DNA of 59,767 bases, the filler included. It is 4 parts of 4 records of this genome, joined end to end, with 100 filler letters (N's around TTAATTAATTAA, not from the genome) between each part and the next. Parts side by side here need not be neighbours in the genome. Positions count along the whole stretch, not along the records: positions 43,637 to 59,767 come from DRR723986_12520; 3 more parts are not named here. One strand, given 5' to 3'. This document shows, piece by piece, positions 12,577-59,767 of the stretch. Each line of letters opens with the position of its first letter. The first letter of the stretch is position 1. A program made the position numbers and the translations under genes. The notes beneath the pieces are model-generated. The model saw only the letters and a program-made list of their open reading frames with translations, ran no database searches and was not told the DNA's origin.

Positions 12577-12676
12577 NNNNNNNNNNNNNNNNNNNNNNNN
12601 NNNNNNNNNNNNNNNNNNNNTTAATTAATTAANNNNNNNNNNNNNNNNNNNNNNNNNNNNNNNNNNNNNNNNNNNN
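12577..12676. other. Artificial contig spacer (44N-TTAATTAATTAA-44N)
   Basis: Six-frame stop linker; GC drops abruptly across it. Confidence 0.99.
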
Positions 12677-37164: not shown

Positions 37165-37264
37165 NNNNNNNNNNNNNNNNNNNNNNNNNNNNNNNNNNNN
37201 NNNNNNNNTTAATTAATTAANNNNNNNNNNNNNNNNNNNNNNNNNNNNNNNNNNNNNNNNNNNN
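37165..37264. other. Artificial contig spacer
   Basis: 44N-TTAATTAATTAA-44N; GC jumps across it. Confidence 0.99.
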
Positions 37265-43536: not shown

Positions 43537-43636
43537 NNNNNNNNNNNNNNNNNNNNNNNNNNNNNNNNNNNNNNNNNNNNTTAATTAATTAANNNNNNNN
43601 NNNNNNNNNNNNNNNNNNNNNNNNNNNNNNNNNNNN
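43537..43636. other. Artificial contig spacer
   Basis: 44N-TTAATTAATTAA-44N. Confidence 0.99.
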
Positions 43637-43637
43637 C

Positions 43638-43928
43638 GACGCCTTGCGATCCGAGAAAAGAGAGCTGGATCAAACCGTCGCGGATGCGCGCATTGCGGCT
43701 GCCCGAGAGGCAGCACGGGCCGGAACCCTAAGCGGCAGGTCTGATGCGATTGCGGCTGATATCGCGGCGAGCGAGGACAGGCTTGCGCAGCTGAAGCGCG
43801 ATATCGAAGAAACTCAAAAGAAACAGGATCTTGAACGCCAGGAACCTGAGGCCGGAACCGATCTGCCATCGCCGCCCCCTTCTGCGGACGCCGCAATCGA
43901 TCCTGCCGACATTCAGAACCAAGAGTGA
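43638..43928 (+). CDS. C-terminal fragment of a coiled-coil protein (5' truncated)
   Basis: Heptad-like charged helix (ELDQTVADARI...LAQLKRDIEETQKK) and a Pro-rich tail; stops 10 nt before the next ATG. Confidence 0.65.
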   Translation, partial: DALRSEKRELDQTVADARIAAAREAARAGTLSGRSDAIAADIAASEDRLAQLKRDIEETQKKQDLERQEPEAGTDLPSPPPSADAAIDPADIQNQE

Positions 43929-43938
43929 GTGACCATCA

Positions 43939-46191
43939 ATGTTGTCCAATCTGACCGCGATCGTGCTCGTGACGGCCTCTGCACTGGCTTTGCTCTCGAT
44001 CGTCCAATTGCTGCTGGCCGCCCGGAACGATCGCGTTGCGACGGCGGCGGGACCGATTGAGGATCTCGCCGTCTACGAACGGCGATTGCAGGAGAAGAAG
44101 GACGCGGTTGCGGATATCGAGAACGAACTCGAGCTGCGCCGAAAGGCTCTGGGGGACGTCGCCGGTATGCAGGCGGAGGTCGATGCCCTTGTGCGGCAGC
44201 GCGAAACCTTGCTCGCCGAACACGCGACGCTGGAGGAGCGCAAGGCAGAAGTGCTGGCCGTTCGGTCCGATATGGAAGCAGCCCAGATAGAGCGGCAGTC
44301 GCTCGAAGCCGAGTTGATCGAAAAGCGCGAAGAATACCTCGCGGTCAAGGACCGCCTGGAAAAGGCGGAACGGCTCGTGCATCAGATTTCTGCCCTTTCT
44401 GCCGAGAAGGCGGAATTGGATCGCGCCATCGATGACCTGCGCGATGAGGTGCGCCGCCTGCAGGATGCGGAGAAACGCGTGGCGGACCTGTCGCAGCGGG
44501 CGCTCGATCTGGAAGCCGACTTGGCGCGCAAGGCAGGGGCGCTTGCATCACGCGAGAGCGATCTGGCGGAGGTGAGCGAGCGCCTTTCGGCAGAGCGGTC
44601 ACGGATTGCCGAAAGCAGTGCCGCGCTTTCGCAGGTGCAGGCAGAGAAGGCCGCCGAAGATCAATCCCTGGCGCGATTGAAAAGCGAGGCGATCGAGGCG
44701 CAGGAACGCTGTGATGCCCTGCGAGCGGCAGTCGGTGCACGCGAAGCCGATGTTCGTCGCCTGGATACGCAGATTCAGGAGCGGAATGGCAAGGTCACGT
44801 CTCTGGCTGCCGACATCGAGGCCCAGAAAGCGCTCAAGGTCGATCTCGAGGATGAGCTGACATCCTTGCGCATCGAAGTCGCCTCCGCCGAAGAGGCCTT
44901 TGCGGAACGGAACGGCGAACTGGATGCGATGGCAGATCGCCGGGTTCGGATGGAGGCCAAGCTTGCAAACTTGCAAGCGGCCATCGAACAGAGCCAGGGG
45001 GCCGCGGCGGGCGGTGGCACATCGACCGTCGATCCGTTGAAGGAACTGAAGGAGCGCCCGCCGGTCATCGTGCAGTTGGAGAACCTCGACGCACCGGGGC
45101 AGATCTACGAAGGCGAGGCGATCCACAACGTGGAAAAACGCCTGCAAGCCTTCGGACTGGATTACCATCCGCGTGTGATCCGGGCCTTCCATACGGCCAT
45201 GAAGGTCAACGAGAGCACGCAGATGGCGGTGCTCGCCGGGATTTCCGGCACGGGCAAGAGCCAGCTGCCCCGGCAATACGCCAGCGCCATGGGGATCGGG
45301 TTCCTCCAGGTGCCGGTGCAGCCGCGATGGGACAGCCCGCAGGACCTCATGGGCTTCTACAACTACATCGAGGGCAAGTTCCGCCCGACCGACATGGCGC
45401 GTGCTCTCTGGGCGCTGGACGGGCACAACAACGTGGACGCAGTCGAAGACCGGATGATGATGGTGCTGCTCGACGAGATGAACCTCGCGCGGGTCGAATA
45501 CTACTTCTCCGATTTCCTCAGCCGCTTGGAAAGCCGACCGTCGCGGGATCGAACGGACGACAAGGGGCTGCGCAAGGACGCGGAGATCGAGCTCGAAATC
45601 CCGAAGCTTGCGCAGCCGCCGCGCATCTTCCCGGGATACAACCTGCTGTTTGCTGGCACGATGAACGAGGATGAAAGCACGCAATCGCTGTCGGACAAGG
45701 TCGTGGACCGCGCCAACATCCTGCGGTTTGCAGCGCCGAAGAAGATCCAGGCGGGGGCACGGCAAGGCGATGTTCCGGAGGTGCGTGCCCTGTCGCAGGG
45801 CAAATGGCAGTCTTGGGTGAAGCCGGTCTCGTCGGTCGCGGGCAACGAGATGGTGACCGCCAGCGTGGAACGCATGGTGGACTTGATGCGCAGCTTCGGC
45901 AGGCCTTTCGGTCACCGCCTTGGCCGTGCGATCATGGATTACGTCGCGAATTATCCCGAGGCCGACGGTGTGGACCGCATCCGCGCAGGCCTGGCCGATC
46001 AGGTCGAAATGCGCCTTCTGCCCAAGCTGCGCGGGGTCGAGGTCGATGACATGGAGCATGTCTTTGGCGAGTTGACGGCTTTTGTCGAGAATGACCTGGG
46101 TGACGCGGTCCTGGCAGATGCCATTCGGGCGTCGAAGGATGCGGCAGAGGCTTCGACCGGGCAGTTCGTCTGGAACGGGGTGACGCGCTGA
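43939..46191 (+). CDS. Membrane-anchored coiled-coil McrB-like AAA+ GTPase (NxD type)
   Basis: N-terminal hydrophobic helix, about 310 aa coiled coil, Walker A GISGTGKS, VQPRWDSPQDLMGFYN, Walker B LLDEMNLARVEYYFSDFLS, GTMNEDE, LSDKVVDRA. Confidence 0.85.
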   Translation: MLSNLTAIVLVTASALALLSIVQLLLAARNDRVATAAGPIEDLAVYERRLQEKKDAVADIENELELRRKALGDVAGMQAEVDALVRQRETLLAEHATLEERKAEVLAVRSDMEAAQIERQSLEAELIEKREEYLAVKDRLEKAERLVHQISALSAEKAELDRAIDDLRDEVRRLQDAEKRVADLSQRALDLEADLARKAGALASRESDLAEVSERLSAERSRIAESSAALSQVQAEKAAEDQSLARLKSEAIEAQERCDALRAAVGAREADVRRLDTQIQERNGKVTSLAADIEAQKALKVDLEDELTSLRIEVASAEEAFAERNGELDAMADRRVRMEAKLANLQAAIEQSQGAAAGGGTSTVDPLKELKERPPVIVQLENLDAPGQIYEGEAIHNVEKRLQAFGLDYHPRVIRAFHTAMKVNESTQMAVLAGISGTGKSQLPRQYASAMGIGFLQVPVQPRWDSPQDLMGFYNYIEGKFRPTDMARALWALDGHNNVDAVEDRMMMVLLDEMNLARVEYYFSDFLSRLESRPSRDRTDDKGLRKDAEIELEIPKLAQPPRIFPGYNLLFAGTMNEDESTQSLSDKVVDRANILRFAAPKKIQAGARQGDVPEVRALSQGKWQSWVKPVSSVAGNEMVTASVERMVDLMRSFGRPFGHRLGRAIMDYVANYPEADGVDRIRAGLADQVEMRLLPKLRGVEVDDMEHVFGELTAFVENDLGDAVLADAIRASKDAAEASTGQFVWNGVTR

Positions 46192-47702
46192 TGCCGCGAT
46201 TGCCGCGTCCCTGGTCCGGACAGTTCGGGGACGATGCCGCCGCCTTCGGGCCCGGTGACTGCCTCCTGAGCGAGGGAGATCTGCCCGGGCGCGAGGAAAA
46301 GGTCCTGCTCATGCCGGGGGAGGTCCGAGGCGTGAACCGGGCGCTGTGGTTGCACCCCTATCCTCGCAAGGGCGCGGCAGGTTCGCCAGAGCGGTCGGGC
46401 TTTCCGATCCGACCGAAGATCGGGACGGAGCCGCAGAACGGCGAGGATACGCTGCCCTTCGATACCCTGCGCCGGATGAACGAAGTCATGGCGCGTCTAC
46501 AGGAACTCGAAGAGGCGCTGGACGATCCGGCGAATGTCTGGTCGCGCCTGCGCGCGGCATGGAAGCGTGCCGAGAACGAGGAAGACCCGCGCATGGCCGA
46601 AATCGTGCGGCAGGCGCGCGACCTCGGCCCGGTGGCGCGCGATCTGGAAAAGCGGATCAGGCGGGTGCTGCGCAGGCAACGTGAGATGACGCCGTTGGAC
46701 CGTGTTCAAGAGATGGACCGCGCCTCGATGGTTTGGCTGAGCCGCCAGCCGGGACGTGGAATTGCCGAACGCGCGGGTGCAAGTCAGCGCATCCTGGCGA
46801 CGGTGCGGCGAGAGAATTTCGATACGCTGGAAAACCGCGTCCTGCGGGCATGGCTGGGGCTGGCAGAGGCGGTGGCGCGCGAATGGCTGCGCGAGCACGC
46901 GCGGGCGCGAGAAAGCGCTCGGTTCCGATCTGTCGAGGCGCTGCGGAAACTGTGCCGACGGATGAACGACGAACTGGACCAGCTGGGGGTCAATGTCGCA
47001 CAGCCGGGGATCACGCCGAACTACGTCCTTATGCAGGACCGCGGCTATCGGCGCATATACGACGCATGGCAACGCCTGTTGAAGCGCGACCAAGCTCTGG
47101 ATCAACTTTGGGCATGGCAGGCCCAGTCTTGGACGGATTTCGCGGTTCTCGCGATCGTCCTTGCGCTGGACGACTTGCCGGACGTCGAATTGATCGCGCA
47201 ATCGCCGATGCTGTGGAACTCGGAAGCCCGCGCCGGGCGCTGGTTCGACCAGGATCGACCCTTGGCCATCTTCTGGCTAAAACGCATCGGGCGTGTCGTC
47301 GAAGTTATGGCGCGACCGGAACAGCCCGGCACCATGCTGACCCTGGCGCGCGCGCATGTCGCGTTGCGGATATCTGATCCTGCCGGGGTCGAGATGGATC
47401 AGCGAATTCCGGTCTGGACGCCCCATGCGATGCTGCCTTTGGACATGGGGACGATTGCGCGTGACGCGATGGGCTGCCTTGCCCAGTTGCAGATCGCAAA
47501 ACGTCAATTGAGCGCGATGGACACGATTCACAGCGGTTTGGTTCTTGCGCCGACCCATGGCGATTCAGTGGCTGTGCGCAAATCCGATGGCCCGCTGACA
47601 GTCGATGCCATCAGCCTCGGCGCATCGGGCGAGGCGCTGGGGCAGGGCATCGCGTCGCTCAAGGCCTATGCCGAAAGCCAGTTCTCGGAGGTGCACGGAT
47701 GA
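46191..47702 (+). CDS. DUF2357 McrC-like protein, nuclease motif apparently degenerate
   Basis: DTLENRVL and PNYVLMQDRGYRRIY DUF2357 motifs; TGATG overlap with the GTPase; no PD...D/ExK seen. Confidence 0.75.
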   Translation: MPRLPRPWSGQFGDDAAAFGPGDCLLSEGDLPGREEKVLLMPGEVRGVNRALWLHPYPRKGAAGSPERSGFPIRPKIGTEPQNGEDTLPFDTLRRMNEVMARLQELEEALDDPANVWSRLRAAWKRAENEEDPRMAEIVRQARDLGPVARDLEKRIRRVLRRQREMTPLDRVQEMDRASMVWLSRQPGRGIAERAGASQRILATVRRENFDTLENRVLRAWLGLAEAVAREWLREHARARESARFRSVEALRKLCRRMNDELDQLGVNVAQPGITPNYVLMQDRGYRRIYDAWQRLLKRDQALDQLWAWQAQSWTDFAVLAIVLALDDLPDVELIAQSPMLWNSEARAGRWFDQDRPLAIFWLKRIGRVVEVMARPEQPGTMLTLARAHVALRISDPAGVEMDQRIPVWTPHAMLPLDMGTIARDAMGCLAQLQIAKRQLSAMDTIHSGLVLAPTHGDSVAVRKSDGPLTVDAISLGASGEALGQGIASLKAYAESQFSEVHG

Positions 47703-50029
47703 GCTTTACGAAGCTGTGCGGCTACGATGTGAACGGGTACCGCGACCTGGCCGCGCGAAACTGGGAAATCTCCGCCGACGGCGAAGAGCGCCAGAACATC
47801 CAGATCACGCACGGCGGGTTGCTGTCGTCTGTGGTGCGGGCCGGTACAGGGCCCGACATGCGCTGGATCGGCGGTGCGCAGGCAGCGCTTGCTCCGCACG
47901 GGCGCGGCGATGGCTGGGGAGAGATCGGCAAGGCAGGGCGCCGGTCCTTGACCCGCTGCCTGTTGACCGGAAGGAATGACGACGTGGAAGCGCTCGGCGC
48001 TGCCTTTTCCGGCTTGGTCACGGGTGCGCGGTATAACGTGATGGCCGTCGATGACGTCGGACGCGATGTCGAGGCCCAGCAGGAACGGGTCCTGCGTGCA
48101 GCGCAGAAGGCTCACCTGTCCAATCCGCTGCTCGTCTGGCGCAGCGTCCTTGCGGTTCTGTACCACGTTTCCCTTGGAACGCTTGCAGAGGGGCGGCGCG
48201 TGGGCATCATCAGCCATTGCGAAGACGGGCTCGCCGTACAACAGATGCGCATCCTGTCCCGTGACGGCGTGTTGGCGCCAGAGCGAAACCGACCCGCACG
48301 ATTGGTGCCCTCGGCCGCCGGGCTTGGTGAGCTTGTGATGGCGGCGCGCCACGTCATGCTGGGCGGCGAAAGGATATCGCAGGGCAATGCCCATCGTCCC
48401 CAGGCCAGAATGGTCGGGACGCTTGCCTTGGGGGAGCCGGTTTCGGCAGAACTGCTGCGGAACAACCGTGGCCGCTGGGATCTGATCGAGCCTATGACCA
48501 TGACGCTGCCAGTCCGCGATTTCGAGCGCGAAGACTTGGCCAGCCTGAGGGATTGTGACGTCGTGCTCTTCGAAACCGTCGCAACCGGTGTCGTCGCGGA
48601 CACGGTGGCCGGTTGGTGTGCCGCGATGCTGGCTCGTGACGTAGCGCGGTTGCCGCAGGAGGCCGTTGCACGCGGTGCGCTCGAAGCGGCGCGACGCATC
48701 CAGAGGCGCGAACCCGTCTACTTCGACTTCCTGCCGCAGATTTCGACCATCGTTCAGACGGGCAGCAAGGCTGGCAATTACGACTTGATCCGTGCGGGCG
48801 ATACGGTCGAGGCAGGCCGCCTCTATCGCAGTCCGGAACCGGCGCAGATGGCCATCCCGGCGCGGCAGAACGCAATATCGGTCTACCTGCGCAAGGAGAT
48901 GATTGCCCAACCGCGCCGCGCCACGGTCGAGATCGGCGCCCCCTTGCAGGCCGCCGCGCCGGTGGACTTGCTCGTCGAGCAAAAGCCGGTCTCCGGCCGG
49001 GCCCGCATCCTGATGGAAGCGCGGTCCATAGGACGGCAATTTACCGTCGATTGGGACGAGGCCGAAGTCGTCGACACGGATTGGGACACCCTGATCGCGT
49101 CGCTCGAAGCGCCCCGACCTTCGGTCCCCGACAGGCTGGTTCTCGGGGCGGCGCTGGATGCCTGGCAGACCGGGATGACCGAACTTCTGGAGGAGAACGC
49201 GGACCGGAGCGATGTGGACTGGACGGCTCTCGCCCAGAAGATGCGATCGGGGGTCAATCAGAGCTATTGCGTGTCGAGCGATGGCGAACTGCCACCCGGC
49301 CTGTCGCGCCTCGACATCGAACGCCTGGACAGGCTGACGGAGCGTGCCCTCGTAGAGACCGAGGAGCGCGTCGCCGGGCGCAGGCGGGGCGACAACGATG
49401 CGCTGGCGTTTCTGACCTGGCAGTTCCGCCGCTGTCCAAGGCAGTTGCTCCCGATGTTGATGGACTGCCTGACTGGAAACGGGGACCATCCGTTCGTCTG
49501 GAGGCCGATGAACTGGGTCCTGATCTATCAGGGCTTGGCCCGCATCGTTTCCGATCCTGACGACGAGGCGCGTTTGCTCCGTCACATCCTGCAGTCGCCA
49601 ATCGGTGAATCCGAATGGCGTACGAAAACCGCCTGCATCGCCATGGTCCTTTCGCGCTCGGAAACGGCGCCGCATTCATTGGTGCGCGAGGATATCGACG
49701 TGCTGGCGCGTCGTGCGATCTTCGAATTCGGCGAGGTGGTTGGAGATGGATATACCCGTTTCCTCTACGCACGTTTCCTGTTGGGCGGGCTGCTGCGGTG
49801 GAGAGCCGTCGATCCCTATGCCTTGGTTCCGGGCTACGACCCGCTTGGCGAGCGCCTTGTTCACTCGATCGAGGCCATCCTCGCGGACTTCGACCTACGG
49901 GCCAGAAGGCACCGAGAAGTGGCAACTGCAGAACGGCGGCTTCGACCGACCTTCGAGGGCCTCCTGTCGGAACTCAAGGGGGACGGCGGCAGCCCGGATC
50001 TGCTGTTGAACATCTACCAAAGCAGTTGA
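47699..50029 (+). CDS. Divergent Hsp70/actin-fold protein with extra C-terminal helical domain
   Basis: CGYDVNG, RAAQKA..SNPLLVWRSVLAVL, EAVARGALEAA and YFDFLP..STI...LIRAG appear in Hsp70 order; ATGA overlap. Confidence 0.65.
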   Translation: MSFTKLCGYDVNGYRDLAARNWEISADGEERQNIQITHGGLLSSVVRAGTGPDMRWIGGAQAALAPHGRGDGWGEIGKAGRRSLTRCLLTGRNDDVEALGAAFSGLVTGARYNVMAVDDVGRDVEAQQERVLRAAQKAHLSNPLLVWRSVLAVLYHVSLGTLAEGRRVGIISHCEDGLAVQQMRILSRDGVLAPERNRPARLVPSAAGLGELVMAARHVMLGGERISQGNAHRPQARMVGTLALGEPVSAELLRNNRGRWDLIEPMTMTLPVRDFEREDLASLRDCDVVLFETVATGVVADTVAGWCAAMLARDVARLPQEAVARGALEAARRIQRREPVYFDFLPQISTIVQTGSKAGNYDLIRAGDTVEAGRLYRSPEPAQMAIPARQNAISVYLRKEMIAQPRRATVEIGAPLQAAAPVDLLVEQKPVSGRARILMEARSIGRQFTVDWDEAEVVDTDWDTLIASLEAPRPSVPDRLVLGAALDAWQTGMTELLEENADRSDVDWTALAQKMRSGVNQSYCVSSDGELPPGLSRLDIERLDRLTERALVETEERVAGRRRGDNDALAFLTWQFRRCPRQLLPMLMDCLTGNGDHPFVWRPMNWVLIYQGLARIVSDPDDEARLLRHILQSPIGESEWRTKTACIAMVLSRSETAPHSLVREDIDVLARRAIFEFGEVVGDGYTRFLYARFLLGGLLRWRAVDPYALVPGYDPLGERLVHSIEAILADFDLRARRHREVATAERRLRPTFEGLLSELKGDGGSPDLLLNIYQSS

Positions 50030-50489
50030 CGGCAGAACGGGTAGGTCCGCTCCGATACCCAGCATTCGAGAGCCCGAGCCCCTGCATCGTTCGTGAAGCA
50101 GAAATTGGGTTATGGACCTGAAAGAAGCGCGCAGCCATCCGACACTTCTTCCGGGATAGGTGCGCTGTCTCGGGTCGAACTCTGCCCATTGATCGCGCTC
50201 CTCGAGCACGCCGAGGGGATTTTCCTTCTCAGGGCGCCGCGGCCGGGATCGTTGCGAAGCCCGGGCCTTTGTCCCGGCCTCGTCGGCGCCGAATATCCAG
50301 CCTTCGTCGCGGGCGGTCATGGTTTCGGAGCCTGGCGCGGGTGGCATGACGGTCGCGTCGAGCAGGCGGGACCTTCTGCAGTGAGCTGCCCCAGCAGGGA
50401 TTGGAAGATGCGCAGCCTTTCGAGACTGACCTCGGGCGTCTCTTCGCCTGAGCCGTCGATGCCGATCTGGCGGTGGGGGCGTGGCGGGC

Positions 50490-53400
50490 TCATGGGGAGA
50501 TGCCAGCGATGGCGGGCCATTCCGGCAATGCCGCCAGCGCGTTGACGAGGCGCATCTGCTCGACCGTTTCGCAGCGGGTGTCGGGTAGGCGGGGGCTGGA
50601 AAAGACCAGTGCCAAGGCCTTGGCGCGCGACACCGCGACGTTCAGGCGGTTGCGCGACAGGAGGAACTCGAGGCCACGCGGGATATCCTCGGCGCTCGAT
50701 GCGGTCATCGAGACGAGGCAGACCGGGGCCTCCTGGCCCTGGAACTTGTCGACCGTGCCGACACGGACGCTCGCGGGCAGCGCGTCGCGCAGGGCGTTGA
50801 CCTGGGCGTTGTAGGGCGCAACGACGATGATGTCCTGTTCGCGCAGCGGGCGGGCGGGGCCGTCGTGCCATTGCCCTGCAAGCAAGCGCGCGACGGCGGC
50901 GAGTATGGCTTCGGTTTCCTCCGGCGCGGTCTGGGCATTGCCGGTGTGCGGGACTTCGACGCGGAAGGCGCCGGCCACGGGCAGACCGGGCGCGGTGATC
51001 CTGCGGGCGGCGGCGGTGTCATGGGCGGTGAGCTGGCCGTCGTAGAACCGATCCGAGACATAGGCACAGACATCGGGATGCATTCGGCGCGAGACGGGCA
51101 GGAAGATCCCGCGATCCGGTGCGACCGTGATGGCCTCGCCGAGCAGCCATTCGAGGCAGCTGAGGTTCGCCGGGTCGGGATGCGCGCCCTGTATCACCTG
51201 GGGCAGCTGGTTCGGGTCGCCGACGAGCACGATGTTATGGGCACAGCGCGCCATGGCGATGAGGTTGGCGAGACTGACCTGACCGGCCTCGTCCACCACC
51301 AGCGTATCGAACGCGGTTTCGAATTCGGGCCGGGAAAACAGGAACGCCGTTCCGCCGACGATATCGGAGGTAAACAGCTCGTCGTCCTGGTTGGTCTCGG
51401 CCACAGTGACGGGGCAGTCCTCGGGGTAACCGTGGTCGCGCCCGGTCTTGTGCACCATCGTCACCGTGTCGTCGATCTCCAGCGCGGCGACGCAACCCAT
51501 CATCAGGTTGCGCACGGCCTCATGGCTGTTGGAACTGACGGCAACGCGGCGCCCCTGGCGGACAAGGGCGAGGATCGCGCGCGCGGTGACATGCGTCTTG
51601 CCGGTGCCGGGTGGGCCTTGAATGGGCAGCACTGTGGCATCCATGGCAAGCACGGCGTCGCGCACGGCGGTCACAGGATCGTCGCGGGGGATGTCCTGCA
51701 GTGCCGTGCCGGTCAGGCGTGGCGGGGTCCGCGACAGCAGGTCGGTGATAGCGCGGTTGGCCTTTGTGCCGCATTGGTCGGCGATCACGGAGCGCAGGCT
51801 TTCGGCGATGACCGTGGTATTCAGCGGCCAGTCCGGCCCAAGATTCAGCCGGTCCGCCAGAAGGTCCGCCTTGGCCGCGCCGATCTTCAGCGTCAGGCGA
51901 CGGGCTCGGCGGTCCAGCGCGGTCAGGCTTGCCTTGGCGGGCGCGCCGTCCGGATCGGAGATCGTGACTTGGGCGCCTTCGCGGAGCTTCGTCTCTTGCT
52001 GCGGGTAGGTGTAATCGCGTTCGAAGGACCGTTTGACCGGGCGCGACGGGCCAAGCGCCGTCAGAAGGCCAAGCGCGTCAAGGTCGTCGAGCAGGTCCTC
52101 GCCTTCCTTCGCTGCCGTGTCGAAGACGGCCCATTGCGCCGGTTTTTGTTCGCGGGCGTGAAACAGCCCGAGGTCGGTCAGCATCGCGGCATCCGAGTGG
52201 CCCCCGGTCAACGCTTCCAACGCTCGGCGGTTCGGGTCGGGCAGTTCAGGCTCGGGTGCGGGCGTCCGCGGGCCGGTATATGTCCGCGGCGTGATCGTCA
52301 TCAACCAGTCGCGCAGCTCCTGTGTCGAGATGCAGTCGATGCGGTTGTACTCCTCGATCTCGTCCAGGATGGCTTGCTCGCCGCTTTCCAGCCAGCGTTC
52401 ATAGGCGACGATGGAGCCGCCCGCCGTCGTCACCTCGCCGTCGCGGGTGCGACCGTAGAAGGCCTCCATCGACTTGATGGAATAGTTCGGTTCCGACGCG
52501 ATCAACCCGCCGCGCACCACGGCATAGAGGTCGACGAAGCGCCCTTCGCGCAGGCAGAGATCGATGAATTCCTCTCCCACGCCGTATTTCGTGGTCAGCC
52601 GTTTCAGGGCGGTGATCTCGTAGGGCGCGTAGTGGTAGATATGCGCCATGGGACGCGCGTCGCGCGCTGCGCGGAAGCTATCCAGAAGGCGTTCCAGCGC
52701 GCGTTTCTCGGCGGCGTGGTCATGCGCCCAGAGAGCGGTGAAACCATCGGCGGACCACAGCCCGTGCAGATATTCGAGGCCGCCGGGCACATGCGGATCG
52801 CCCTCGATGTCGTAGAAGATGTCGCCCGGGTCCGGCTCCGGCAAGAGGTCGAAGCCACGCCCGGGTTCGGGGTCGCGCAACTCAAAGGACGGCATGCCGG
52901 TCCGTCGTGCAGTCTGCAGGCGAGCCTGTGTCGTCAGCCGGGCCAGCGTCGGCGCGGCGATGCGACGGACCGCTGCGGTGTTCGTCGCCAGTGCCGCCAT
53001 GGTGGTGATGCCCTGCGCCTCCAGCTTGGCCACCTGGCCCCGGGTGATGCCCGCGACGCGGTAGAGACTGTCCTCGGCCGCCCACTGGCGCTGGCAGTGA
53101 TCCGACCAACGGCAAAGCGAACAATCGGCGCAGGGCGCCGGGCGGGTCTGTTCCGGGGCGTCGAGGAAGGATTCCAGTCGCTTGCGGGCGCGCCGGGCAT
53201 AGGCGGTGTAATCGGCAAGGCGCAGGGAGGCACGCTCTCCGCTGCCGAGTTCGACATGGGCGCGTTCGGGCGGGGCGCCCTGCACGTCGGCCAACAGGTC
53301 CGAGTAGAGCACCAGTTGTAGCACGTGCTTCGGCGAGACGCGGCGCTTCAGCTTCGTGTCCGTGACCTCATAGCTGAAGGGGCCGAGGTTCGACGGCGTC

Positions 53401-53750
53401 TCGACCCGTTCGAGGAAATCCGACCAACCGCCCCAACGCCCCTGCGCCAGCGCGCCTTGGAAGACGACGGCGGGACCTTTCGCAAGGACAGAGCGCGTGT
53501 CCTGCGCGTTTTCCCAAAGGTCGCCGCGCTCGATCTCGACTACGTCGCCCGTGGCCTTCAACTCGGCGAGGTGAGCCGCCTCATGGGCATCGCCCTGTTT
53601 CTGCAACAGGGCGGTGTCGTCAGAGGCGGCATTCGGCACCAGGTTTGCACCGTTCAGGTAATCGAGGTCCAGCCGCGTGGCATGGGCGCAGCCCATGAAA
53701 CGCATGAGGTCGGTCGCGGACAAGAGTAGCGTGTCACCGTGGCGCTTCAT
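50490..53750 (-). CDS. TM0106-family RecB/Cas4-like nuclease + RNase H-like domain + SF1 (DNA2/UPF1-like) helicase fusion
   Basis: SDFL...DTKL, Q...Y, C..C..C.W...C, FYDIEG, QGPPGTGKT, VDEAGQ, GDPNQL, TVDKFQGQE, RLNVAVSRA. Confidence 0.9.
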   Translation of the reverse strand: MKRHGDTLLLSATDLMRFMGCAHATRLDLDYLNGANLVPNAASDDTALLQKQGDAHEAAHLAELKATGDVVEIERGDLWENAQDTRSVLAKGPAVVFQGALAQGRWGGWSDFLERVETPSNLGPFSYEVTDTKLKRRVSPKHVLQLVLYSDLLADVQGAPPERAHVELGSGERASLRLADYTAYARRARKRLESFLDAPEQTRPAPCADCSLCRWSDHCQRQWAAEDSLYRVAGITRGQVAKLEAQGITTMAALATNTAAVRRIAAPTLARLTTQARLQTARRTGMPSFELRDPEPGRGFDLLPEPDPGDIFYDIEGDPHVPGGLEYLHGLWSADGFTALWAHDHAAEKRALERLLDSFRAARDARPMAHIYHYAPYEITALKRLTTKYGVGEEFIDLCLREGRFVDLYAVVRGGLIASEPNYSIKSMEAFYGRTRDGEVTTAGGSIVAYERWLESGEQAILDEIEEYNRIDCISTQELRDWLMTITPRTYTGPRTPAPEPELPDPNRRALEALTGGHSDAAMLTDLGLFHAREQKPAQWAVFDTAAKEGEDLLDDLDALGLLTALGPSRPVKRSFERDYTYPQQETKLREGAQVTISDPDGAPAKASLTALDRRARRLTLKIGAAKADLLADRLNLGPDWPLNTTVIAESLRSVIADQCGTKANRAITDLLSRTPPRLTGTALQDIPRDDPVTAVRDAVLAMDATVLPIQGPPGTGKTHVTARAILALVRQGRRVAVSSNSHEAVRNLMMGCVAALEIDDTVTMVHKTGRDHGYPEDCPVTVAETNQDDELFTSDIVGGTAFLFSRPEFETAFDTLVVDEAGQVSLANLIAMARCAHNIVLVGDPNQLPQVIQGAHPDPANLSCLEWLLGEAITVAPDRGIFLPVSRRMHPDVCAYVSDRFYDGQLTAHDTAAARRITAPGLPVAGAFRVEVPHTGNAQTAPEETEAILAAVARLLAGQWHDGPARPLREQDIIVVAPYNAQVNALRDALPASVRVGTVDKFQGQEAPVCLVSMTASSAEDIPRGLEFLLSRNRLNVAVSRAKALALVFSSPRLPDTRCETVEQMRLVNALAALPEWPAIAGISP

Positions 53751-53764
53751 GGGGGCCTTTTGGG

Positions 53765-54148
53765 TCAGGCGGCGTCGAGCGCGTCGAGGATCTTGTCCAA
53801 TTGCGCGAGGGACGCGAGATTGATGCAGACAAGGTCACCCTGGGCAAGCTGCAGCATTGGCTTCATGGCGGAATGGCGTCCGAACTTGGCTGCAGGGTCG
53901 CGATTTGCGGCGGACCGCTTGTAATCGAAGTCCTGCGACAAAAGGCCGGCGACCCGCTCCTCCAACAACCAGAGGTTCGGCGGGCTCAGATCATCCTTCT
54001 GGAACATGATCTCGGTCGTCTTTCCCGAGGCGCCCTTGAAGACATAGCGGCAGGCCTTCGATCCCTGGTGCCGCGCGGGATGTTCCTGGCAAACGGCATT
54101 CAAACGTTGGATGATGGCGGATTTCAGCTCGGCGCGGGGCGTGGGCAT
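53765..54148 (-). CDS. Hypothetical protein (127 aa), first gene of the TM0106 operon
   Basis: ATG 54148 after the purine-rich AGAAAGAA; ends 14 nt upstream of the TM0106 start; GRHSAMK motif. Confidence 0.65.
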   Translation of the reverse strand: MPTPRAELKSAIIQRLNAVCQEHPARHQGSKACRYVFKGASGKTTEIMFQKDDLSPPNLWLLEERVAGLLSQDFDYKRSAANRDPAAKFGRHSAMKPMLQLAQGDLVCINLASLAQLDKILDALDAA

Positions 54149-54201
54149 CTGGTTCTTTCTTTGTGACGGGCACCGACTCGCGTGTCGGCCTCTCGATTGA
54201 T

Positions 54202-54232
54202 TAACTACGTTGCAACCAGGACAAAAGCTGTC
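54202..54232 (-). promoter_or_regulatory. Candidate WYL-regulator site and promoter (copy 1)
   Basis: Minus strand GACAGCTTTTGTC-CTGG-TTGC-AACG-TAGTTA. Confidence 0.55.
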
Positions 54233-54244
54233 ATGCATGTCGCC

Positions 54245-55213
54245 ATGTCCTACGATAAAGCCGCTGAATTGCTGAGACTCGCCCGCCTGTGCGCCGCATC
54301 GCGGCAGGGGATCACCTTTGCGCAGGTGGCCGAGGAGTTCGGCATGAGCCAGCGCAATGCAAAACGCATGGTGGATCGGCTGTGCGACCTGTTCGAGGTC
54401 GAGCGGCTGGAGGATGCAGAGCGGCGCGCGCGGTTTCGCATCCGCGAGGCACGCGAGATGGCGCTTCCCGAGAAGCCTGACATCACACTCGAGGCACTGA
54501 AACTGGCGCTCCGCGGATTGGAGGAGGGCTCGGCCCATGCGGTGGCGCTTGCGGACCTGCGCAACGCGGTGCTGGCACGGTTGGAACCCAACCGTGCGCG
54601 CAAGGCGGAATTGGATGCCGAAACGGTGTTGCAGGCATACGGCCACGTCGCCAGCCCCGGGCCACGCGTGCGCATTGCGCCAGACGTGATCGAGAGCATC
54701 GGCGAGGCTTTGCGCGGACCGTTCCAGTTGCGGATCGCCTACGGGGACAAACCGCCGCGCGTGGTGGAACCCTACGGCATCCTGCGCGGCGTGCGCGGCT
54801 ACCTGGTGGCGAAACAGCGCGAGAAGGGGGAGTTGCCGATCAAGTTCCGGCTGGACCTGATCCGCGAGGCGGAGGTCCTGAACGAGAGCTTCCTGCTCGA
54901 CGAGGGTTTCGACATTGCGGATTTCGCGGCCGAGGGTTTTGGCGTCTGGCACGATCCGAAGGAATCGAAGGAGGTCGTCTGGCGGTTTGTTCCCGAGGTC
55001 GCGGAGCGCGCGGCGGAGTTCGTCTTTCATCCCGGCCAGAGCACGGAGAAGCTGGAGGATGGCAGTTTGCTGGTGCGTTTCACCGCCTCGGGTTGGACCG
55101 AGATGACATGGTATCTGTACAAGTGGGGCGACAAGGTCGAAGTGCTGGAGCCGCCGGAATTGCGCGCGAAGGTCGCAGGTTACCAACGCTCCGACTTCGA
55201 AGCGCTGCCCTGA
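54245..55213 (+). CDS. WYL-domain transcriptional regulator (HTH-WYL-WCX)
   Basis: N-terminal HTH (VAEEFGMSQRNAKR), R.VEPYGI..YLVA, FRLDLI, WCX FHPGQ...WGDKVEVLEPPELR. Confidence 0.9.
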   Translation: MSYDKAAELLRLARLCAASRQGITFAQVAEEFGMSQRNAKRMVDRLCDLFEVERLEDAERRARFRIREAREMALPEKPDITLEALKLALRGLEEGSAHAVALADLRNAVLARLEPNRARKAELDAETVLQAYGHVASPGPRVRIAPDVIESIGEALRGPFQLRIAYGDKPPRVVEPYGILRGVRGYLVAKQREKGELPIKFRLDLIREAEVLNESFLLDEGFDIADFAAEGFGVWHDPKESKEVVWRFVPEVAERAAEFVFHPGQSTEKLEDGSLLVRFTASGWTEMTWYLYKWGDKVEVLEPPELRAKVAGYQRSDFEALP

Positions 55214-56454
55214 GACACGGCCGAAAGGACGTGATCGGCGAGCGTCTGGGCGGCAGCGCGCGGGTCTTGCATCGGGACTTCCAACAGGGTGACGGGGTGG
55301 CCCTCGGAGGTATGCAGGCGGTCGATGCGGTGGTCCGGAGTGTCGGTGGGGTAGATCAGCATGACGCTATCCGCAGCCCATGCCGAGCGGTAGGCGAGCA
55401 TCTGGTAGACGTCGGATTGCGCCACGCCGCGTTTCGGGTCGGACGGGCCTTCGAGGCGTTTCCATTTCGTATCGAGGATGTGCACTTCGGCATCGCGCCT
55501 GAGGACGATGTCCGGGTACATGGCGAAGACCCCTGCGCCGTCTCGCCTCAGGGCATATTTGCCGCCAGCTTGGAGGGTGACCGTCCATCCCAAGGGCGAC
55601 AGGCGGCGCTGAAGGATCAGGCCGACCCAGGCCTCGAACAGCAAGTTCATGCGGAACAAGAGCGCGATGCCCTCGGTCCGGCCGGTCGACGTGGTCTGGA
55701 AGTGCCGGTCGAGGAAGAGTTTCGCGCGGCGGCACAGCGGCGCGAAGCGCTTGGTCTGGCGGTCGAAAGCCGGCAATTTCACCGGCCCGCGTGGCAGGGG
55801 CGATGCGCCGTCGAGATGCATCAGCGCTTCGGACAGCGCACGGCGGCTGCTATCGCGGCGGCTGAGGCGCAACAGCAGCACGGAGGCGGCGCGTAGCAGG
55901 CGGTTGACCGGCGTATCGGGCAACCGCTCGTCGAAGCGGCAGGCGAGCCTGTCCTGCCGTCCGGCGCGCAGCGAAAACTGCCGCACCACGTCGAGCGATC
56001 CACGCAGCGCCTTCAGGTCGTCGTTTTGCGCGTAATACTGCTGCGGGGTGCCGCGGCGCAGCTGCTCCAGCAAGTCGGCGGCAAAGCGTGAAATCAGCAG
56101 CTCGAGCAGGTCGAGGCGCTGCGCATCCATGGCGGAGAGGTCGAGGGACGACAGGTCGAACCCCTCGACCATGGACAACATGTGGATCAGCCCGGCGCGC
56201 GTCGCGCCGTTGTCGCGGTCGACCTTGGGCAGGATCTCGAGGTGCGTCGCCCCAGAGGCCAGCACGCCCACGACCTGCTGGGCGCGCAGCCGCTTGCGCC
56301 CGTCGAGGAGGATCTTCTCGCCGTCCTCCGTCGCGGTCTTCAGCCCGAGCGCGGGGGCGGCGCGGTCGGCCAGATCCAGCAGCGCGTCGGCCTGCGGACG
56401 GGTCAGCGCATCGCCAAGGTCGACGTATCCCCATTCCCGGACGGTCAGCGTCAC
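55180..56454 (-). CDS. mcrC: McrC family restriction nuclease subunit
   Basis: LEILPK, D.P.NRLL, LF.MN.LFE, YPDIV...ILDTKWK, SDVYQMLAY; GTGA overlap with mcrB. Confidence 0.9.
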   Translation of the reverse strand: MTLTVREWGYVDLGDALTRPQADALLDLADRAAPALGLKTATEDGEKILLDGRKRLRAQQVVGVLASGATHLEILPKVDRDNGATRAGLIHMLSMVEGFDLSSLDLSAMDAQRLDLLELLISRFAADLLEQLRRGTPQQYYAQNDDLKALRGSLDVVRQFSLRAGRQDRLACRFDERLPDTPVNRLLRAASVLLLRLSRRDSSRRALSEALMHLDGASPLPRGPVKLPAFDRQTKRFAPLCRRAKLFLDRHFQTTSTGRTEGIALLFRMNLLFEAWVGLILQRRLSPLGWTVTLQAGGKYALRRDGAGVFAMYPDIVLRRDAEVHILDTKWKRLEGPSDPKRGVAQSDVYQMLAYRSAWAADSVMLIYPTDTPDHRIDRLHTSEGHPVTLLEVPMQDPRAAAQTLADHVLSAVSQGSASKSERW

Positions 56455-58916
56455 GCTTGCAGGCCTGCGTAGGCCTCGGCAGGGAATTCGGTGCGGACCG
56501 TGTAGCGGATGCGGGTTTCATCGGCGTCCATACCGGGCGGCACGGGCAGCGGATCGCAGGCGATGAATCCTTGTTTGGCGCCGCCAAGGCAGGCCACGAC
56601 GCGGGACCAGTCCTCGTGAAAGTACTCCGCCAGAAGCGGCAGCACCTTTCGGCGCATGACGGCGTCGATGTCGGCGCGGCTCTGGCATCCCATGAAGAAG
56701 GCATGCCCGATCAAGTGATCGCGGTCGGCGAGGTATTCGATGCGCGCGTTGAGGAGGCTCAGCAGGGTCGAGAGGTCGATCCCGTCGATGGTGCCCAGCA
56801 GGGCGGGGCGCGGCGGCATCTCGACGAAATGGAAGCGGCGGCGCAGCGCGGTGTCCAAGAGCGCGATGGAACGGTCGGCGGTGTTCATCGTGTCGAGGAT
56901 GTGCAGGTTGGCGGGCAGGGTGAAATCATCGCCGGAATAGGGCAGTCGGACCGAGACGGCATTGGCGCGCCCGCCGCGTTTGTCCTCCTCGAGCAGGGTG
57001 ATGAGCTCGCCGAAGACCTTGGAGATGTTGGCGCGGTTGATCTCGTCGATGACGAGGACGAAGGGGCGCTCGGACGGCCCCCGGCGCGGCGCGATGAAGG
57101 CGGCGATGGCGTCGAGCTTCAGCTCGTCGTGCTTCAGCCGATGCAGGGAGGGCATGACGAATGCCCCGTTGGTGATCTGTGTCCTGGGCAGGGCCTCGCC
57201 ATGCCACAGCCAATCTACGCGGCGACCCTGCGGGTAGCCGTTGTCGCGCTCGACGAACTCGTAATCGCCGGTGATGCGTCCTATGGCCCGAAAGGATGAG
57301 TTGCCCTGCGAGATGACGACCATGTCACCCTTGTTCATCTCGTTGCGGAAACGGTGGATGAAATTGGCGTGGGACGACAGCTTTTCAGCGTTCGGGAAGC
57401 GGTTCTGGAGCTCGGACACGATCTCTGGTTTCGACGCAAATCGCGGATCGCTCCAATCGTGATCCATGCCCCAGCCCAGTAGGACCAGACCTTCCTCGAT
57501 GCAGTCCTCGTAGATGTGAGCGTCGCTGCTTTTCGATGCTTCACCAAGGCTCATCTTCCAGAAGCTGGTCTTCCCGAGCGCCTGCACGGTGCCCGCATCC
57601 GCGGGGGCGTCGGGGACGGAGGTGGCCAGCGACGCGATCTCGCGCAGGGCGCCATGGCGCGGGACGAGGCGGAAGCCTGCCTCGCCGTCGCCGCCTTCGG
57701 GGCGCAGGCCTTCGACGAATTCCTCGTAGCTGTAGCTTTGATGAAAGGTGACGAAGCCGATGCGACCCTGCTCGTGCAGCGTGCTGTAGCGGTCGCGCAG
57801 GGCTTCGGGGGACAGCGCCTCGGCGGCAGCGCGTCCGTCGCAGATCGCCACGGCTTCGCGGAAGGTGGCATAGGTCTTGCCGGTGCCGGGGGGGCCGTAG
57901 AGGATCGTGTTCAGGGTCTGCATGGATGTGTCCTTCACGGCGGTGACGGCAGTTGCAGGGGGTTGTTCGGGCGGCGTGTCGGGAAAGGCGGGCGCTGTGC
58001 CTGCCGTAACGAACAGCAGGCTTTGTACGTCGACCATGTCGCGCGGCGGATAGCCCGCATCGGTCAGCGACTGCGCCCAAAGCCGGGCGAGGCGCAGTTC
58101 CTGCGAGTAAGCCTCGGCGGCGGGCAGGCTGGGCAGGGGGGTAGCAAAGCTCTGGTACCAGGTGGTCTTCAGGATCTCGGCCTTGAAGAAGATCGCGTCG
58201 GTCGGGTTGCAAAGGAACAAGAGGTACTCAGCCACCTGCCGCGCCGTGTCTCGCGAGGCGTCGGGCGTCAGTGCCAGCCAGTCGTCCGCGAATGTCGCCA
58301 GCGCCGCCGGGTGCTCCGTCGGGCGGTCGCGCGTCTCCAGAAGCGCGGCGAATACGCGACCGTGGGCGGCGCGGTTTTCCGAGGGGGAAAACAGGTCCTT
58401 CAGCCGCCAGTTTAGCAGGTTGGTGGCCCGGGCCGCCTCGGCCACGGCGTCGAGCACGGCCTCGTCGTGCCGTGCCTGACCCAATGCGCGCCGCAGGGCA
58501 TCCCCGGCGGCGCGTTTGAAGTCGCGCTCCTCCTCGTCGAAACCCGCGTGGCCGAACCCGGTCCAGCCCGGGAATTTCTGCCGAACCTGCGCCAGTTTTC
58601 GACGCAAGGCAGCCTGTAGAGGGTCTTCGAAGAGCGCGGTGATCAGCACGAGGTCCGCTTCGCGGCGCAGGTCCAGCGAGGGAGGCAGCGTTTCGGGAAG
58701 GCGCGCGGACAGAGCTGCATCCGGGGTCAGCCGTTGTCGCGTCGTCATGCCGAAGTGCCATGCGAGGCTGTCGCCCGACGCGGTGGCAAGGGTCAGTCGG
58801 TCCCCCTCGCGGCCACGCGGCGAGACGCCATAGGCGGCCAATGCCTCGGCCATGGCGTGGCGCAGAGGCGTCATCCCATCCTCGGGGAAGGCCGTGCGCG
58901 CGTCGTGCCAGTCCAT
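56451..58916 (-). CDS. mcrB: McrB family GTPase with inserted EVE/PUA-like domain
   Basis: GPPGTGKT, FHQSYSYEEFVEG, IDEINRANISKVFGELITLLE, MNTADRS, ALRRRF. Confidence 0.9.
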   Translation of the reverse strand: MDWHDARTAFPEDGMTPLRHAMAEALAAYGVSPRGREGDRLTLATASGDSLAWHFGMTTRQRLTPDAALSARLPETLPPSLDLRREADLVLITALFEDPLQAALRRKLAQVRQKFPGWTGFGHAGFDEEERDFKRAAGDALRRALGQARHDEAVLDAVAEAARATNLLNWRLKDLFSPSENRAAHGRVFAALLETRDRPTEHPAALATFADDWLALTPDASRDTARQVAEYLLFLCNPTDAIFFKAEILKTTWYQSFATPLPSLPAAEAYSQELRLARLWAQSLTDAGYPPRDMVDVQSLLFVTAGTAPAFPDTPPEQPPATAVTAVKDTSMQTLNTILYGPPGTGKTYATFREAVAICDGRAAAEALSPEALRDRYSTLHEQGRIGFVTFHQSYSYEEFVEGLRPEGGDGEAGFRLVPRHGALREIASLATSVPDAPADAGTVQALGKTSFWKMSLGEASKSSDAHIYEDCIEEGLVLLGWGMDHDWSDPRFASKPEIVSELQNRFPNAEKLSSHANFIHRFRNEMNKGDMVVISQGNSSFRAIGRITGDYEFVERDNGYPQGRRVDWLWHGEALPRTQITNGAFVMPSLHRLKHDELKLDAIAAFIAPRRGPSERPFVLVIDEINRANISKVFGELITLLEEDKRGGRANAVSVRLPYSGDDFTLPANLHILDTMNTADRSIALLDTALRRRFHFVEMPPRPALLGTIDGIDLSTLLSLLNARIEYLADRDHLIGHAFFMGCQSRADIDAVMRRKVLPLLAEYFHEDWSRVVACLGGAKQGFIACDPLPVPPGMDADETRIRYTVRTEFPAEAYAGLQA

Positions 58917-58925
58917 CCTGTCTCC

Positions 58926-59642
58926 TTACCCGGCCAATGCCAGCACGTCTTCGCCCTGCCAGACCGCCCAGGCAACCGGATTCATCACCTCCGGCGACAG
59001 GAAGGTTCGGGCGTTGAAGGTGGGGATGTGGCGGTGCGCCTCGCTGCGGTAGGTCAGCGGCCAATGGGGCCCCACTTCGGAGGTCTTCTGCTGTCCGGCC
59101 CAGAGGCCGCTGTAGGTGGCGACGCGGTAGGCGCGGGCATCGTGGGCCACCAGGTCTGCCTCCGTCTGGGACCGAAGCAGCGCCTGCGCCTCGGCGTCGA
59201 TCTGGGCCAGCAGCCCGTCGAGCGCGCAGTCCGAGCGCTGCACCAGCCGCTCCACCGCATGCCAGCAGAATGTGACGCGGCTCATGGCGAAGTCGCCGCG
59301 TCCCTTGTGCCGCCGCATCGTGACGCGGGTATAGACCAACAGCGGCTCGCAGAAGGTCTCGCCCGCCTCGCCCACCAGCGTCACCATCCGGCGGGTGCGC
59401 AGCACACAGGCCAGCCCATCCTTCCAGCCGCCCACATGCACCACGCCTGGCAGCCGCAGCGCCCGCGCGGCAATTCGCTGGCGGTTTGTGCGGTTGGCGG
59501 TGAGGGGGGAGAGGGCCTCGATCAGGGGACACATGGCCCCGTCGTCCTCTCCCGCCGCCTCGAAGGCCTGGCGGGCAATGCCACGGGCCAGCGACTGGCG
59601 GATGTGATGCGGAGCGGCGCGATGCAGGCTGGCGACGGACAT
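58926..59642 (-). CDS. Hypothetical protein leading the mcrBC operon
   Basis: AAGGAG RBS; ends 9 nt before mcrB; HAVERLVQR motif. Confidence 0.7.
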   Translation of the reverse strand: MSVASLHRAAPHHIRQSLARGIARQAFEAAGEDDGAMCPLIEALSPLTANRTNRQRIAARALRLPGVVHVGGWKDGLACVLRTRRMVTLVGEAGETFCEPLLVYTRVTMRRHKGRGDFAMSRVTFCWHAVERLVQRSDCALDGLLAQIDAEAQALLRSQTEADLVAHDARAYRVATYSGLWAGQQKTSEVGPHWPLTYRSEAHRHIPTFNARTFLSPEVMNPVAWAVWQGEDVLALAG

Positions 59643-59672
59643 GGCAGAATCTCCTTCAGGGGTACGAAGAAA

Positions 59673-59703
59673 AGGTTAATCCGCAAGGGTGTCAAAACCT
59701 GTC
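59673..59703 (-). promoter_or_regulatory. Candidate WYL-regulator site and promoter (copy 2)
   Basis: Minus strand GACAGGTTTTGAC-ACCC-TTGC-GGAT-TAACCT. Confidence 0.55.
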
Positions 59704-59767
59704 CCCGTTGCGCATGGCCGTGAAATTCCCCACGGGCCCAAGGGCTTCGGGGCCTGGTCACGGCGGG

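Follow-up and report, generated by a model that had tools for sequence, protein, structure and literature searches.

The open reading frame (ORF) at positions 43939..46191 of the 59,767-base stretch of DNA analysed here, called the window below, very probably encodes the McrB-type GTPase subunit, CnuB, of a Type III-B CoCoNuT system, an identity assigned from the sequence by its match to the published description. CnuB is not a one-off variant of McrB but a subunit of a published family, with an NxD signature rather than the canonical NxxD, and the copy in the window is a typical, 5'-truncated member of this computationally defined system. New here is the prediction that a second protein of the system, the coiled-coil protein CnuA, is anchored in the membrane as CnuB appears to be, with a charge bias around its anchor reversed relative to that of CnuB; this opposition of charge is a testable point.

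CoCoNuT stands for coiled-coil nuclease tandem (Bell, Sahakyan, Makarova, Wolf, Koonin, eLife 2024, PMC11090510). As described in the main text of that paper, Type III-B systems comprise the NxD GTPase CnuB with an N-terminal coiled coil; a separate coiled-coil protein, CnuA; CnuC, with DUF2357, an inactivated PD-(D/E)xK fold and an N-terminal immunoglobulin (Ig)-like beta-sandwich; a separate CnuD, with Hsp70-like nucleotide-binding and substrate-binding domains (NBD/SBD) and a HEAT-like helical domain; and CnuHE, in which a UPF1-like superfamily 1 (SF1) helicase and a Vsr-like PD-(D/E)xK nuclease form one fusion protein. These systems are 'primarily found in Alphaproteobacteria' (PMC11090510). 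The word 'transmembrane' occurs at 6 places in the main text, where it concerns FtsB-like CoCoPALM GTPases, EssC, a four-transmembrane (4-TM) protein and ShdA. An anchor on the III-B CnuB or CnuA is unmentioned in the main text, and supplementary file 1 lists only the coiled coil for CnuB, a statement that covers the text and that file. Our literature search found no other paper on III-B membrane anchors, and the membrane anchoring of CnuA and CnuB is under-described in the literature covered.

CnuB starts with MLSNLTAIVLVTASALALLSIVQLLLAA, and charged residues are absent from its first 28 positions, where the highest 19-residue Kyte-Doolittle mean (KD19) reaches 2.52; the other six proteins of the same contig show a maximum of at most 1.81 anywhere along their length. 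The following region, residues 40-356, is free of proline and has the periodicity of a coiled coil. In the best register, L, I, V, M, F or A occupies the a and d positions of the heptads at a frequency of 0.722, against 0.629 +/- 0.021 and a maximum of 0.694 in 200 shuffles, and the period-7 hydrophobicity power is 67.9, against 11.3 +/- 10.8, a value matched by 1 of 500 shuffles. In an AlphaFold2 model built from a 43-sequence alignment, we observe a helix at residues 4-36, a break at G38-P39 and a single helix from 40 to 356, for which pLDDT, the local confidence score of the model, is only 50-72, as usual for a lone coiled-coil strand. The stalk then gives way to a linker, of which residues 354-362 have pLDDT below 50 and residues 357-367 are non-helical. 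At about 0.15 nm per residue, the 317 residues of the stalk would span about 47 nm if straight. An earlier note on this DNA had described this succession of a hydrophobic N-terminus, a heptad region up to a GAAAGGG linker and then the GTPase, placing the part before the GTPase at 43939-45010 (residues 1-357), and hydropathy, heptad statistics and AlphaFold2 bear it out. The same note held that the specificity domain of McrB had been replaced, in agreement with the lack of a globular reader before the nucleoside triphosphatase (NTPase) domain of CnuB, where we find one hydrophobic helix and a heptad helix of about 317 residues.

Compared to the common 672-aa form of the protein, the stalk of CnuB has an insertion of 77 residues, exactly 11 heptads, at about residues 252-328 (approximately 44692-44922 in the window). 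Two homologues (P0002 and P0004) share this insertion, and a third (P0016) has one of 70 residues, or 10 heptads, at the same place. The sole patch of the CnuB stalk with pLDDT below 50 (residues 260-264) falls inside this insertion.

The hydrophobic N-terminus is conserved in each of three sets of homologues. In a homologue search that scored 8000 candidates, 1655 proteins reached E<=1e-3, and we examined the best 120 of them, which show 48-77% identity and are mostly 672 aa long; those that carry a name are annotated either as 'McrB family protein' or as 'chromosome segregation ATPase-like protein'. All of these 120 have an N-terminal 19-mer with a Kyte-Doolittle mean of at least 2.34 (range 2.3-3.5). 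The second set comes from scanning 185,579 species, each represented by a single genome, in which 84 stretches were confirmed and 80 loci from reference genomes were analysed; the hydrophobic segment was found in 70 of the 70 related loci with a full-length gene. For the third, a representative library of 1.84 billion proteins was queried with the NTPase domain alone (residues 380-750), which returned 8169 matches at E<=1e-3, with 952 clusters at E<=1e-30. Among the best 150 representatives (50%-identity clusters), 134 look full-length, beginning with Met and having over 250 residues ahead of Walker A, and the anchor is present in 128 of these 134, taken as KD19 of at least 1.6 within the first 70 residues. 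The six exceptions consist of three proteins scoring 1.41-1.55 and three that start within the coiled coil. The earlier note had made its reading depend on conservation of this segment, and since the anchor is kept in 120/120, 70/70 and 128/134 homologues, the reading is not refuted on that count.

The remainder of CnuB, from about residue 370 to 750, is modelled as an alpha/beta domain with pLDDT mostly 85-97. It includes the sequence G-T-M-N-E-D-E at residues 573-579, so that the NxD signature of Type III-B is present, and N576 and D578 are invariant across the 43-homologue alignment; more widely, an NxD[D/E] motif occurs in 146 of the 150 best representatives of this domain. CnuB departs from canonical McrB in having NxD instead of NxxD, and an anchor plus a coiled coil in place of a DNA-binding specificity domain. 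PADLOC assigns residues 237-534 to a candidate family, PDC-M26A (E 4e-39). Apart from AAA_5, discussed below, the Pfam matches of CnuB are to coiled-coil families and are sub-threshold, and the NCBIfam matches to SMC and Rad50 are far sub-threshold and concern the coiled coil only.

The genes cnuB, cnuC and cnuD are translationally coupled via overlapping stop and start codons: cnuB and cnuC share 1 nt at their junction (TGATG), and cnuC and cnuD share 4 nt (ATGA). CnuC contains DUF2357 (PF09823, the N-terminal domain of McrC) with an E-value of 7.7e-09 and 35.6 bits, against a cut-off of 23.3. In an alignment of 18 CnuC sequences, only W307 and G349 are invariant past position 300, the other invariant positions lying in the DUF2357 part, and no invariant Asp, Glu or Lys is found in the C-terminal ~200 residues of these 18 homologues. 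The C-terminal half of CnuC thus appears to lack a conserved nuclease motif, which fits the 'inactivated PD-(D/E)xK' of the PMC11090510 main text. CnuD has no match in Pfam, NCBIfam or PADLOC. Its AlphaFold2 model has a mean pLDDT of 89.6, with residues ~486-775 entirely helical, and the Foldseek matches at ranks 1-50 are all Hsp70-superfamily chains or complexes with one, the best being DnaK 4b9q_A (E 6.6e-15); as modelled, the fold of CnuD is Hsp70-like.

The related loci come mostly from Rhodobacterales and Rhizobiales, with a few from Gammaproteobacteria and Verrucomicrobiota, and show the operon in the order cnuHE, cnuA, cnuB, cnuC, cnuD. The CnuC of the window found a match in 80 of the 80 loci, and its CnuD in 72, rising to 77 with queries from two of the related loci (L002 and L071); the 3 remaining loci end before the gene. 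A helicase with a Vsr-like domain is present in 74 of the 80, the other 6 having less than 1 kb of upstream sequence. CnuHE in these relatives is an SF1 helicase of 1057-1091 aa (AAA_11, AAA_12) that ends in an MTES_1575/DUF559 Vsr-like nuclease, and CnuA is a coiled-coil ORF located between the helicase gene and cnuB, 380-1067 aa long in the 70 loci taken as complete, with only sub-threshold matches to coiled-coil-type families. Five loci from Akkermansia or other Verrucomicrobiales metagenome-assembled genomes (L071-L075) have the order A-B-C-D-helicase, with the helicase downstream of cnuD; this clade is distant (32-36% identity), yet the anchors on CnuA and CnuB are kept.

Two side observations concern individual relatives. 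At L008 10001-12249 and L025 10001-12022, two ORFs, of 246-248 aa and 413-436 aa, stand where the relatives have a single cnuB homologue; a frameshift, a pseudogene or an error in the assembly may be the reason. At L012 3832-5052, a phage-integrase-family gene lies immediately 5' of cnuHE, consistent with carriage on a mobile island.

The window itself is made of four contigs joined by three N44-TTAATTAATTAA-N44 spacers at 12577-12676, 37165-37264 and 43537-43636, so that any feature crossing a spacer is artefactual and genes beside spacers are truncated. The cnuB contig is the last of the four (43637-59767), with the junction 300 bp 5' of cnuB, and because it starts inside cnuA, cnuHE and most of cnuA are missing from the window. 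A tblastn search of the window with CnuHE and CnuA of locus L002 found no cnuHE and only an unrelated minus-strand helicase, with 30% identity over 308 aa. The 94-aa CnuA fragment gave tblastn matches in 0 of the 80 related loci, and we take it as cnuA because of synteny, a coiled-coil ORF being found at the same position in 70 loci. What the earlier note had said of an upstream coiled-coil protein therefore stands for the relatives, where this protein is a coiled coil with a hydrophobic helix, while the window holds only a 94-codon 3' fragment of it. The features of the cnuB contig are collected in Table 1.

Table 1 Features of the cnuB contig, in window coordinates.
Feature	Position	Strand	Basis
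cnuA 3' end, last ~94 codons	43638..43928 (43644..43928 as ORF)	+	Frame open from contig start; stop 10 nt before cnuB ATG
cnuB, predicted membrane-anchored coiled-coil NxD McrB-like GTPase, 750 aa	43939..46191	+	
CnuB residues 1-28, uncharged hydrophobic helix, predicted single-pass membrane anchor	43939..44022	+	KD19 2.52, conservation
CnuB residues 40-356, heptad-repeat coiled-coil stalk	44056..45006	+	Heptad statistics, AlphaFold2
CnuB residues 354-367, flexible Gly/Ala-rich linker (GAAAGGG from 354)	44998..45039	+	
CnuB residues ~388-750, AAA+ NTPase domain, McrB/MoxR kind	45100..46188	+	Motifs, fold comparison
CnuB Walker A GISGTGKS, residue 434	45238-45261	+	Motif
CnuB Walker B LLDEMN, residue 510	45466-45483	+	Motif
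CnuB N-E-D-E (NxD signature), residue 576	45664-45675	+	Motif
cnuC, McrC-like with DUF2357, 503 aa	46191..47702	+	Pfam PF09823
cnuD, predicted Hsp70-like NBD/SBD and C-terminal helical-repeat domain, 776 aa	47699..50029	+	AlphaFold2, Foldseek
RecB-like nuclease/RNase H-like/SF1 helicase, 1086 aa	50490..53750	-	TIGR03491 (TM0106 family) 252.9 bits; RNase_H_2; AAA_11/AAA_12
ORF without Pfam or PADLOC match, 473 aa, between nuclease-helicase and canonical McrC	53765-55186	-	
Canonical McrBC pair	55180..58916	-	McrC PF10117 E 4e-64; McrB 821 aa, AAA_5, Walker A GPPGTGKT

In the relatives, CnuA begins with a hydrophobic helix that follows a conserved basic motif, as in the example of L002, LTESNKTYRKSSRNT-AIAAVLGVVAICASGYLVFAV-NSLDQKYG; the N-terminal tail, with a motif like LTSSNxTxRKSR, is positively charged and conserved. 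Where both the A and the B gene are full-length, which holds for 70 loci, the hydrophobic segment is present in all 70 B proteins and in 65 A proteins, the five misses being two CnuA scoring 1.54 and 1.59 and three over-extended or disrupted ORF calls. We analysed the charges on both sides of the uncharged stretch, whose median length is 25 residues in CnuA and 26 in CnuB, for 61 distinct CnuA-CnuB pairs across Pseudomonadota and Verrucomicrobiota, with flanks of 10 or 15 residues. With 10-residue flanks, the net charge of CnuA is +2.64 before the stretch and -0.95 after it, the N-flank being the more positive in 59 pairs, equal in 2 and lower in 0; with 15-residue flanks, it is higher in 60 of the 61. 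CnuB shows the reverse, with -0.44 before and +0.74 after (10-residue flanks; the N-flank is the lower of the two in 45 pairs and the higher in 2, with 14 ties), and the 128 anchored representatives behave similarly (113 have the lower charge on the N side and 2 the higher, with 13 ties).

According to the positive-inside and charge-difference rules, the more positive flank of a membrane helix is cytoplasmic. CnuB is thus predicted to be N-out/C-in, as its GTPase requires, and CnuA, judging from charge counts only, to be N-in/C-out, so that its coiled coil would be periplasmic. A further possibility, which we regard as speculative and rather unlikely, is that the inner-membrane topologies of CnuA and CnuB are opposite, that the two proteins together form a sensor and motor spanning the membrane, and that periplasmic CnuA acts as a 'tripwire', signalling a breach of the envelope via anchor-anchor contacts to the GTPase and so switching on CnuHE. 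The part of CnuA after the anchor, which would be exposed in this arrangement, comprises 350-1030 residues and is fast-evolving: the mean column identity is 19% for CnuA vs 55% for CnuB. The lengths of the two proteins after their anchors do not co-vary (Spearman 0.05, p = 0.70, n = 61), which speaks against a full-length, in-register heterodimeric coiled coil. If the opposite topologies are true, periplasmic events would be linked to a cytoplasmic GTPase-nuclease, a McrBC-derived counterpart of the logic of Zorya; such a link to the periplasm lies outside the published CoCoNuT model, which, in the main text of PMC11090510, centres on RNA targeting.

Several points weigh against the assignment of CnuB to an anchored Type III-B system. 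The literature search found no experimental test of any Type III-B system, and in the window cnuHE is absent and just 94 codons of cnuA are present. Within the NTPase domain, the Pfam family AAA_5 is sub-threshold (16.5 bits against a cut-off of 22), and a phmmer search of this domain against the PDB gave 4 irrelevant matches at E<=10 and no link to McrB. In the fold comparison (VIA-align), MoxR/RavA and MCM chains come out on top with Z-scores of 15.7-13 (2r44 15.7, RavA 15.0) and outscore McrB, of which the best, E. coli 6hz4_A, has Z 11.6 and a root-mean-square deviation (rmsd) of 2.9 over 178 residues; McrB chains rank 21, 22 and 26, the further two scoring 11.1 (E. coli) and 9.8 (Thermococcus). 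Searches with the whole protein point the same way, since the full-length profile matched solely coiled-coil proteins such as myosin in the PDB, and Foldseek with the full model returned generic AAA+ proteins (dynein, MCM, Lon, RavA) with no McrB in the top 50. We assign CnuB to McrB because of its NxD motif, its DUF2357 partner and the published census, and not because of its rank in the fold comparison. Lastly, the charge bias around the anchor of CnuB is weak and is gone with 15-residue flanks.

This weak bias would also suit the alternative that the hydrophobic N-terminus of CnuB is not an anchor at all but either a cleaved export signal or a cytoplasmic hydrophobic core that bundles the stalks, the protein being soluble. 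We consider this improbable, because the median length of the uncharged stretch, 26 residues (range 21-31), is that of a membrane span, where the core of a typical signal peptide is shorter. The stretch is also not preceded by a positive residue (mean of K+R 0.08 in the N-flank) and ends in L-A-A/R, by eye without a small residue at -3; furthermore, the GTPase requires cytoplasmic GTP, and the values of 2.3-3.5 in the best homologues are far over 1.6, the threshold of Kyte and Doolittle for membrane segments.

A second alternative takes CnuB as an anchored protein of the CoCoPALM branch, whose NxD McrB-like GTPase carries a fused FtsB-like module, made up of transmembrane and coiled-coil parts, and is accompanied by signal-peptidase or pilus-assembly proteins. 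A predicted transmembrane helix followed by a coiled coil is indeed what we observe at the N-terminus of CnuB, and the main text of PMC11090510 describes a large NxD clade with the GTPase fused to an FtsB-homologous domain (HHpred E 1.2 in supplementary file 1). Nevertheless, among the operon proteins of the window, of L002 and of L012, Pfam detects neither signal-peptidase nor pilus families; it also gives no FtsB/DivIC match in CnuB at E<=0.01 and no coiled-coil-type match in CnuC, and the operon has the Type III-B set instead (helicase-Vsr, CnuA and Hsp70-like CnuD), so that we hold membership of the CoCoPALM branch to be highly improbable. A housekeeping role without immune function, as a coiled-coil ATPase that is tethered to the membrane and serves cell division or the segregation of chromosomes or plasmids, is hardly credible despite the name 'chromosome segregation ATPase-like protein' of some homologues and the sub-threshold NCBIfam matches to SMC and Rad50, as these are confined to the coiled coil (45.6 bits against a cut-off of 567), the partner is McrC-like with DUF2357, a helicase-nuclease fusion is part of the operon, the locus has canonical McrBC and a further nuclease-helicase as neighbours, an integrase flanks the operon of L012, and the mere 84 stretches confirmed across the species scanned argue against a core gene.

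With CnuB taken as the GTPase of a Type III-B CoCoNuT, we hypothesize that its N-terminal helix would act as a single-pass inner-membrane anchor, with its short N-terminus facing outwards and both stalk and GTPase cytoplasmic, and that the stalk would hold an McrB-like GTPase ring up to tens of nm from the membrane. CnuC may engage this ring as McrC does in E. coli (mechanism summarised in the main text of PMC11090510), CnuD may bind the substrate, and CnuHE may unwind and cut nucleic acid, the target of CoCoNuTs being argued to be RNA in the same text. The anchors of CnuA and CnuB would keep the whole machine at the inner membrane, the entry site of phage nucleic acid, and the function of the system would be anti-phage defence, demonstrated experimentally only for Type II CoCoNuT. 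The function put forward in the earlier note, a hexamer on a stalk that possibly pairs with the upstream coiled-coil protein and senses phage injection or assembly, is plausible. CoCoNuTs form a large, mostly predicted branch of McrBC-derived immunity, and conserved predicted anchors on two of the five proteins point to the inner membrane as the working site. The result for the window is ordinary in itself, a typical, 5'-truncated copy in a defence island.

The cnuB locus lies in a defence-island context, with canonical McrBC and a RecB-like nuclease-helicase on the same contig. The canonical McrB has the signature N-T-A-D, i.e. NxxD, compared to N-E-D in CnuB, and the genome has both kinds of McrB side by side. 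The nuclease-helicase, which PADLOC matches as MkoA-like (1.5e-48), is encoded by a gene convergent with cnuD, and a gene encoding a 60%-identical protein is found a few kb upstream of the operon in three related loci (L009, L016 and L034); this nuclease-helicase may be a recurrent neighbour of the operon. About 170 nt past the cnuD stop, at 50198-50218 on the plus strand, there is a terminator-like hairpin with a T-rich tail; this one hairpin 3' of cnuD compares with 0.4 +/- 0.7 expected from shuffles and is weak evidence. Elsewhere in the window, the contig at 12677-37164 has a guanine-cytosine content of 0.30-0.38, against 0.57-0.67 in the other contigs, and carries housekeeping genes for DnaJ, an ABC-2 permease, a peptidase M28, a CarboxypepD_reg-domain protein, a diaminopimelate/ornithine-type decarboxylase and the succinyl-CoA synthetase beta subunit. 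It probably stems from an organism other than that of the remaining contigs, i.e. from a mixed bin or assembly.

Among known systems, the Type III-B CoCoNuT as described in the PMC11090510 main text agrees with the window and its relatives in the five-gene set and in taxonomic range, and we found no architectural difference from that description. The Type II CoCoNuT is represented by the seven-gene Obs locus, which is reported in a preprint to have protected P. aeruginosa against PP7 and LeviOr01, both RNA phages, and the DNA phage MPK7 (bioRxiv 10.64898/2026.04.06.716636).

The McrBC systems of E. coli and Thermococcus (PDB 6hz4, 7vsr, 6ut5) share with CnuB the AAA+ fold (Z 11.6, 11.1 and 9.8), the Walker A and B motifs and an adjacent McrC-type partner. 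They differ from it in that they have NxxD and a DNA reader, where CnuB has NxD and an anchor and stalk instead; moreover, CnuC is without a conserved PD-(D/E)xK motif, and a genuine NxxD McrBC pair lies 6 kb off on the other strand.

CoCoPALM systems, as described in the main text of PMC11090510, where a further paper on them is announced, resemble CnuB in having an NxD McrB-like GTPase after a transmembrane helix and a coiled coil, whereas they differ from its operon by their signal-peptidase or pilus-assembly genes and by coiled coils on the McrC homologue, neither of which is found here. Shield is set apart by its description in the same text, in which ShdA bears an RmuC-like nuclease rather than a McrB-like GTPase.

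Zorya can be compared in function only. In the published description of ZorAB (Hu et al., Nature 2024, PMC11946911), an inner-membrane complex extends an alpha-helical coiled-coil tail of about 70 nm into the cytoplasm, and this tail relays the signal of phage invasion to soluble nuclease effectors. ZorAB is an ion-driven 5:2 motor, whereas the motor of CnuB would be its GTPase, located in the cytoplasm where the stalk ends, without homology between the two, and PADLOC detects no Zor family among the proteins of the window. By analogy, Zorya would be the closest functional counterpart of the arrangement predicted for CnuB, a complex in the membrane whose long coiled-coil tail lies in the cytoplasm.

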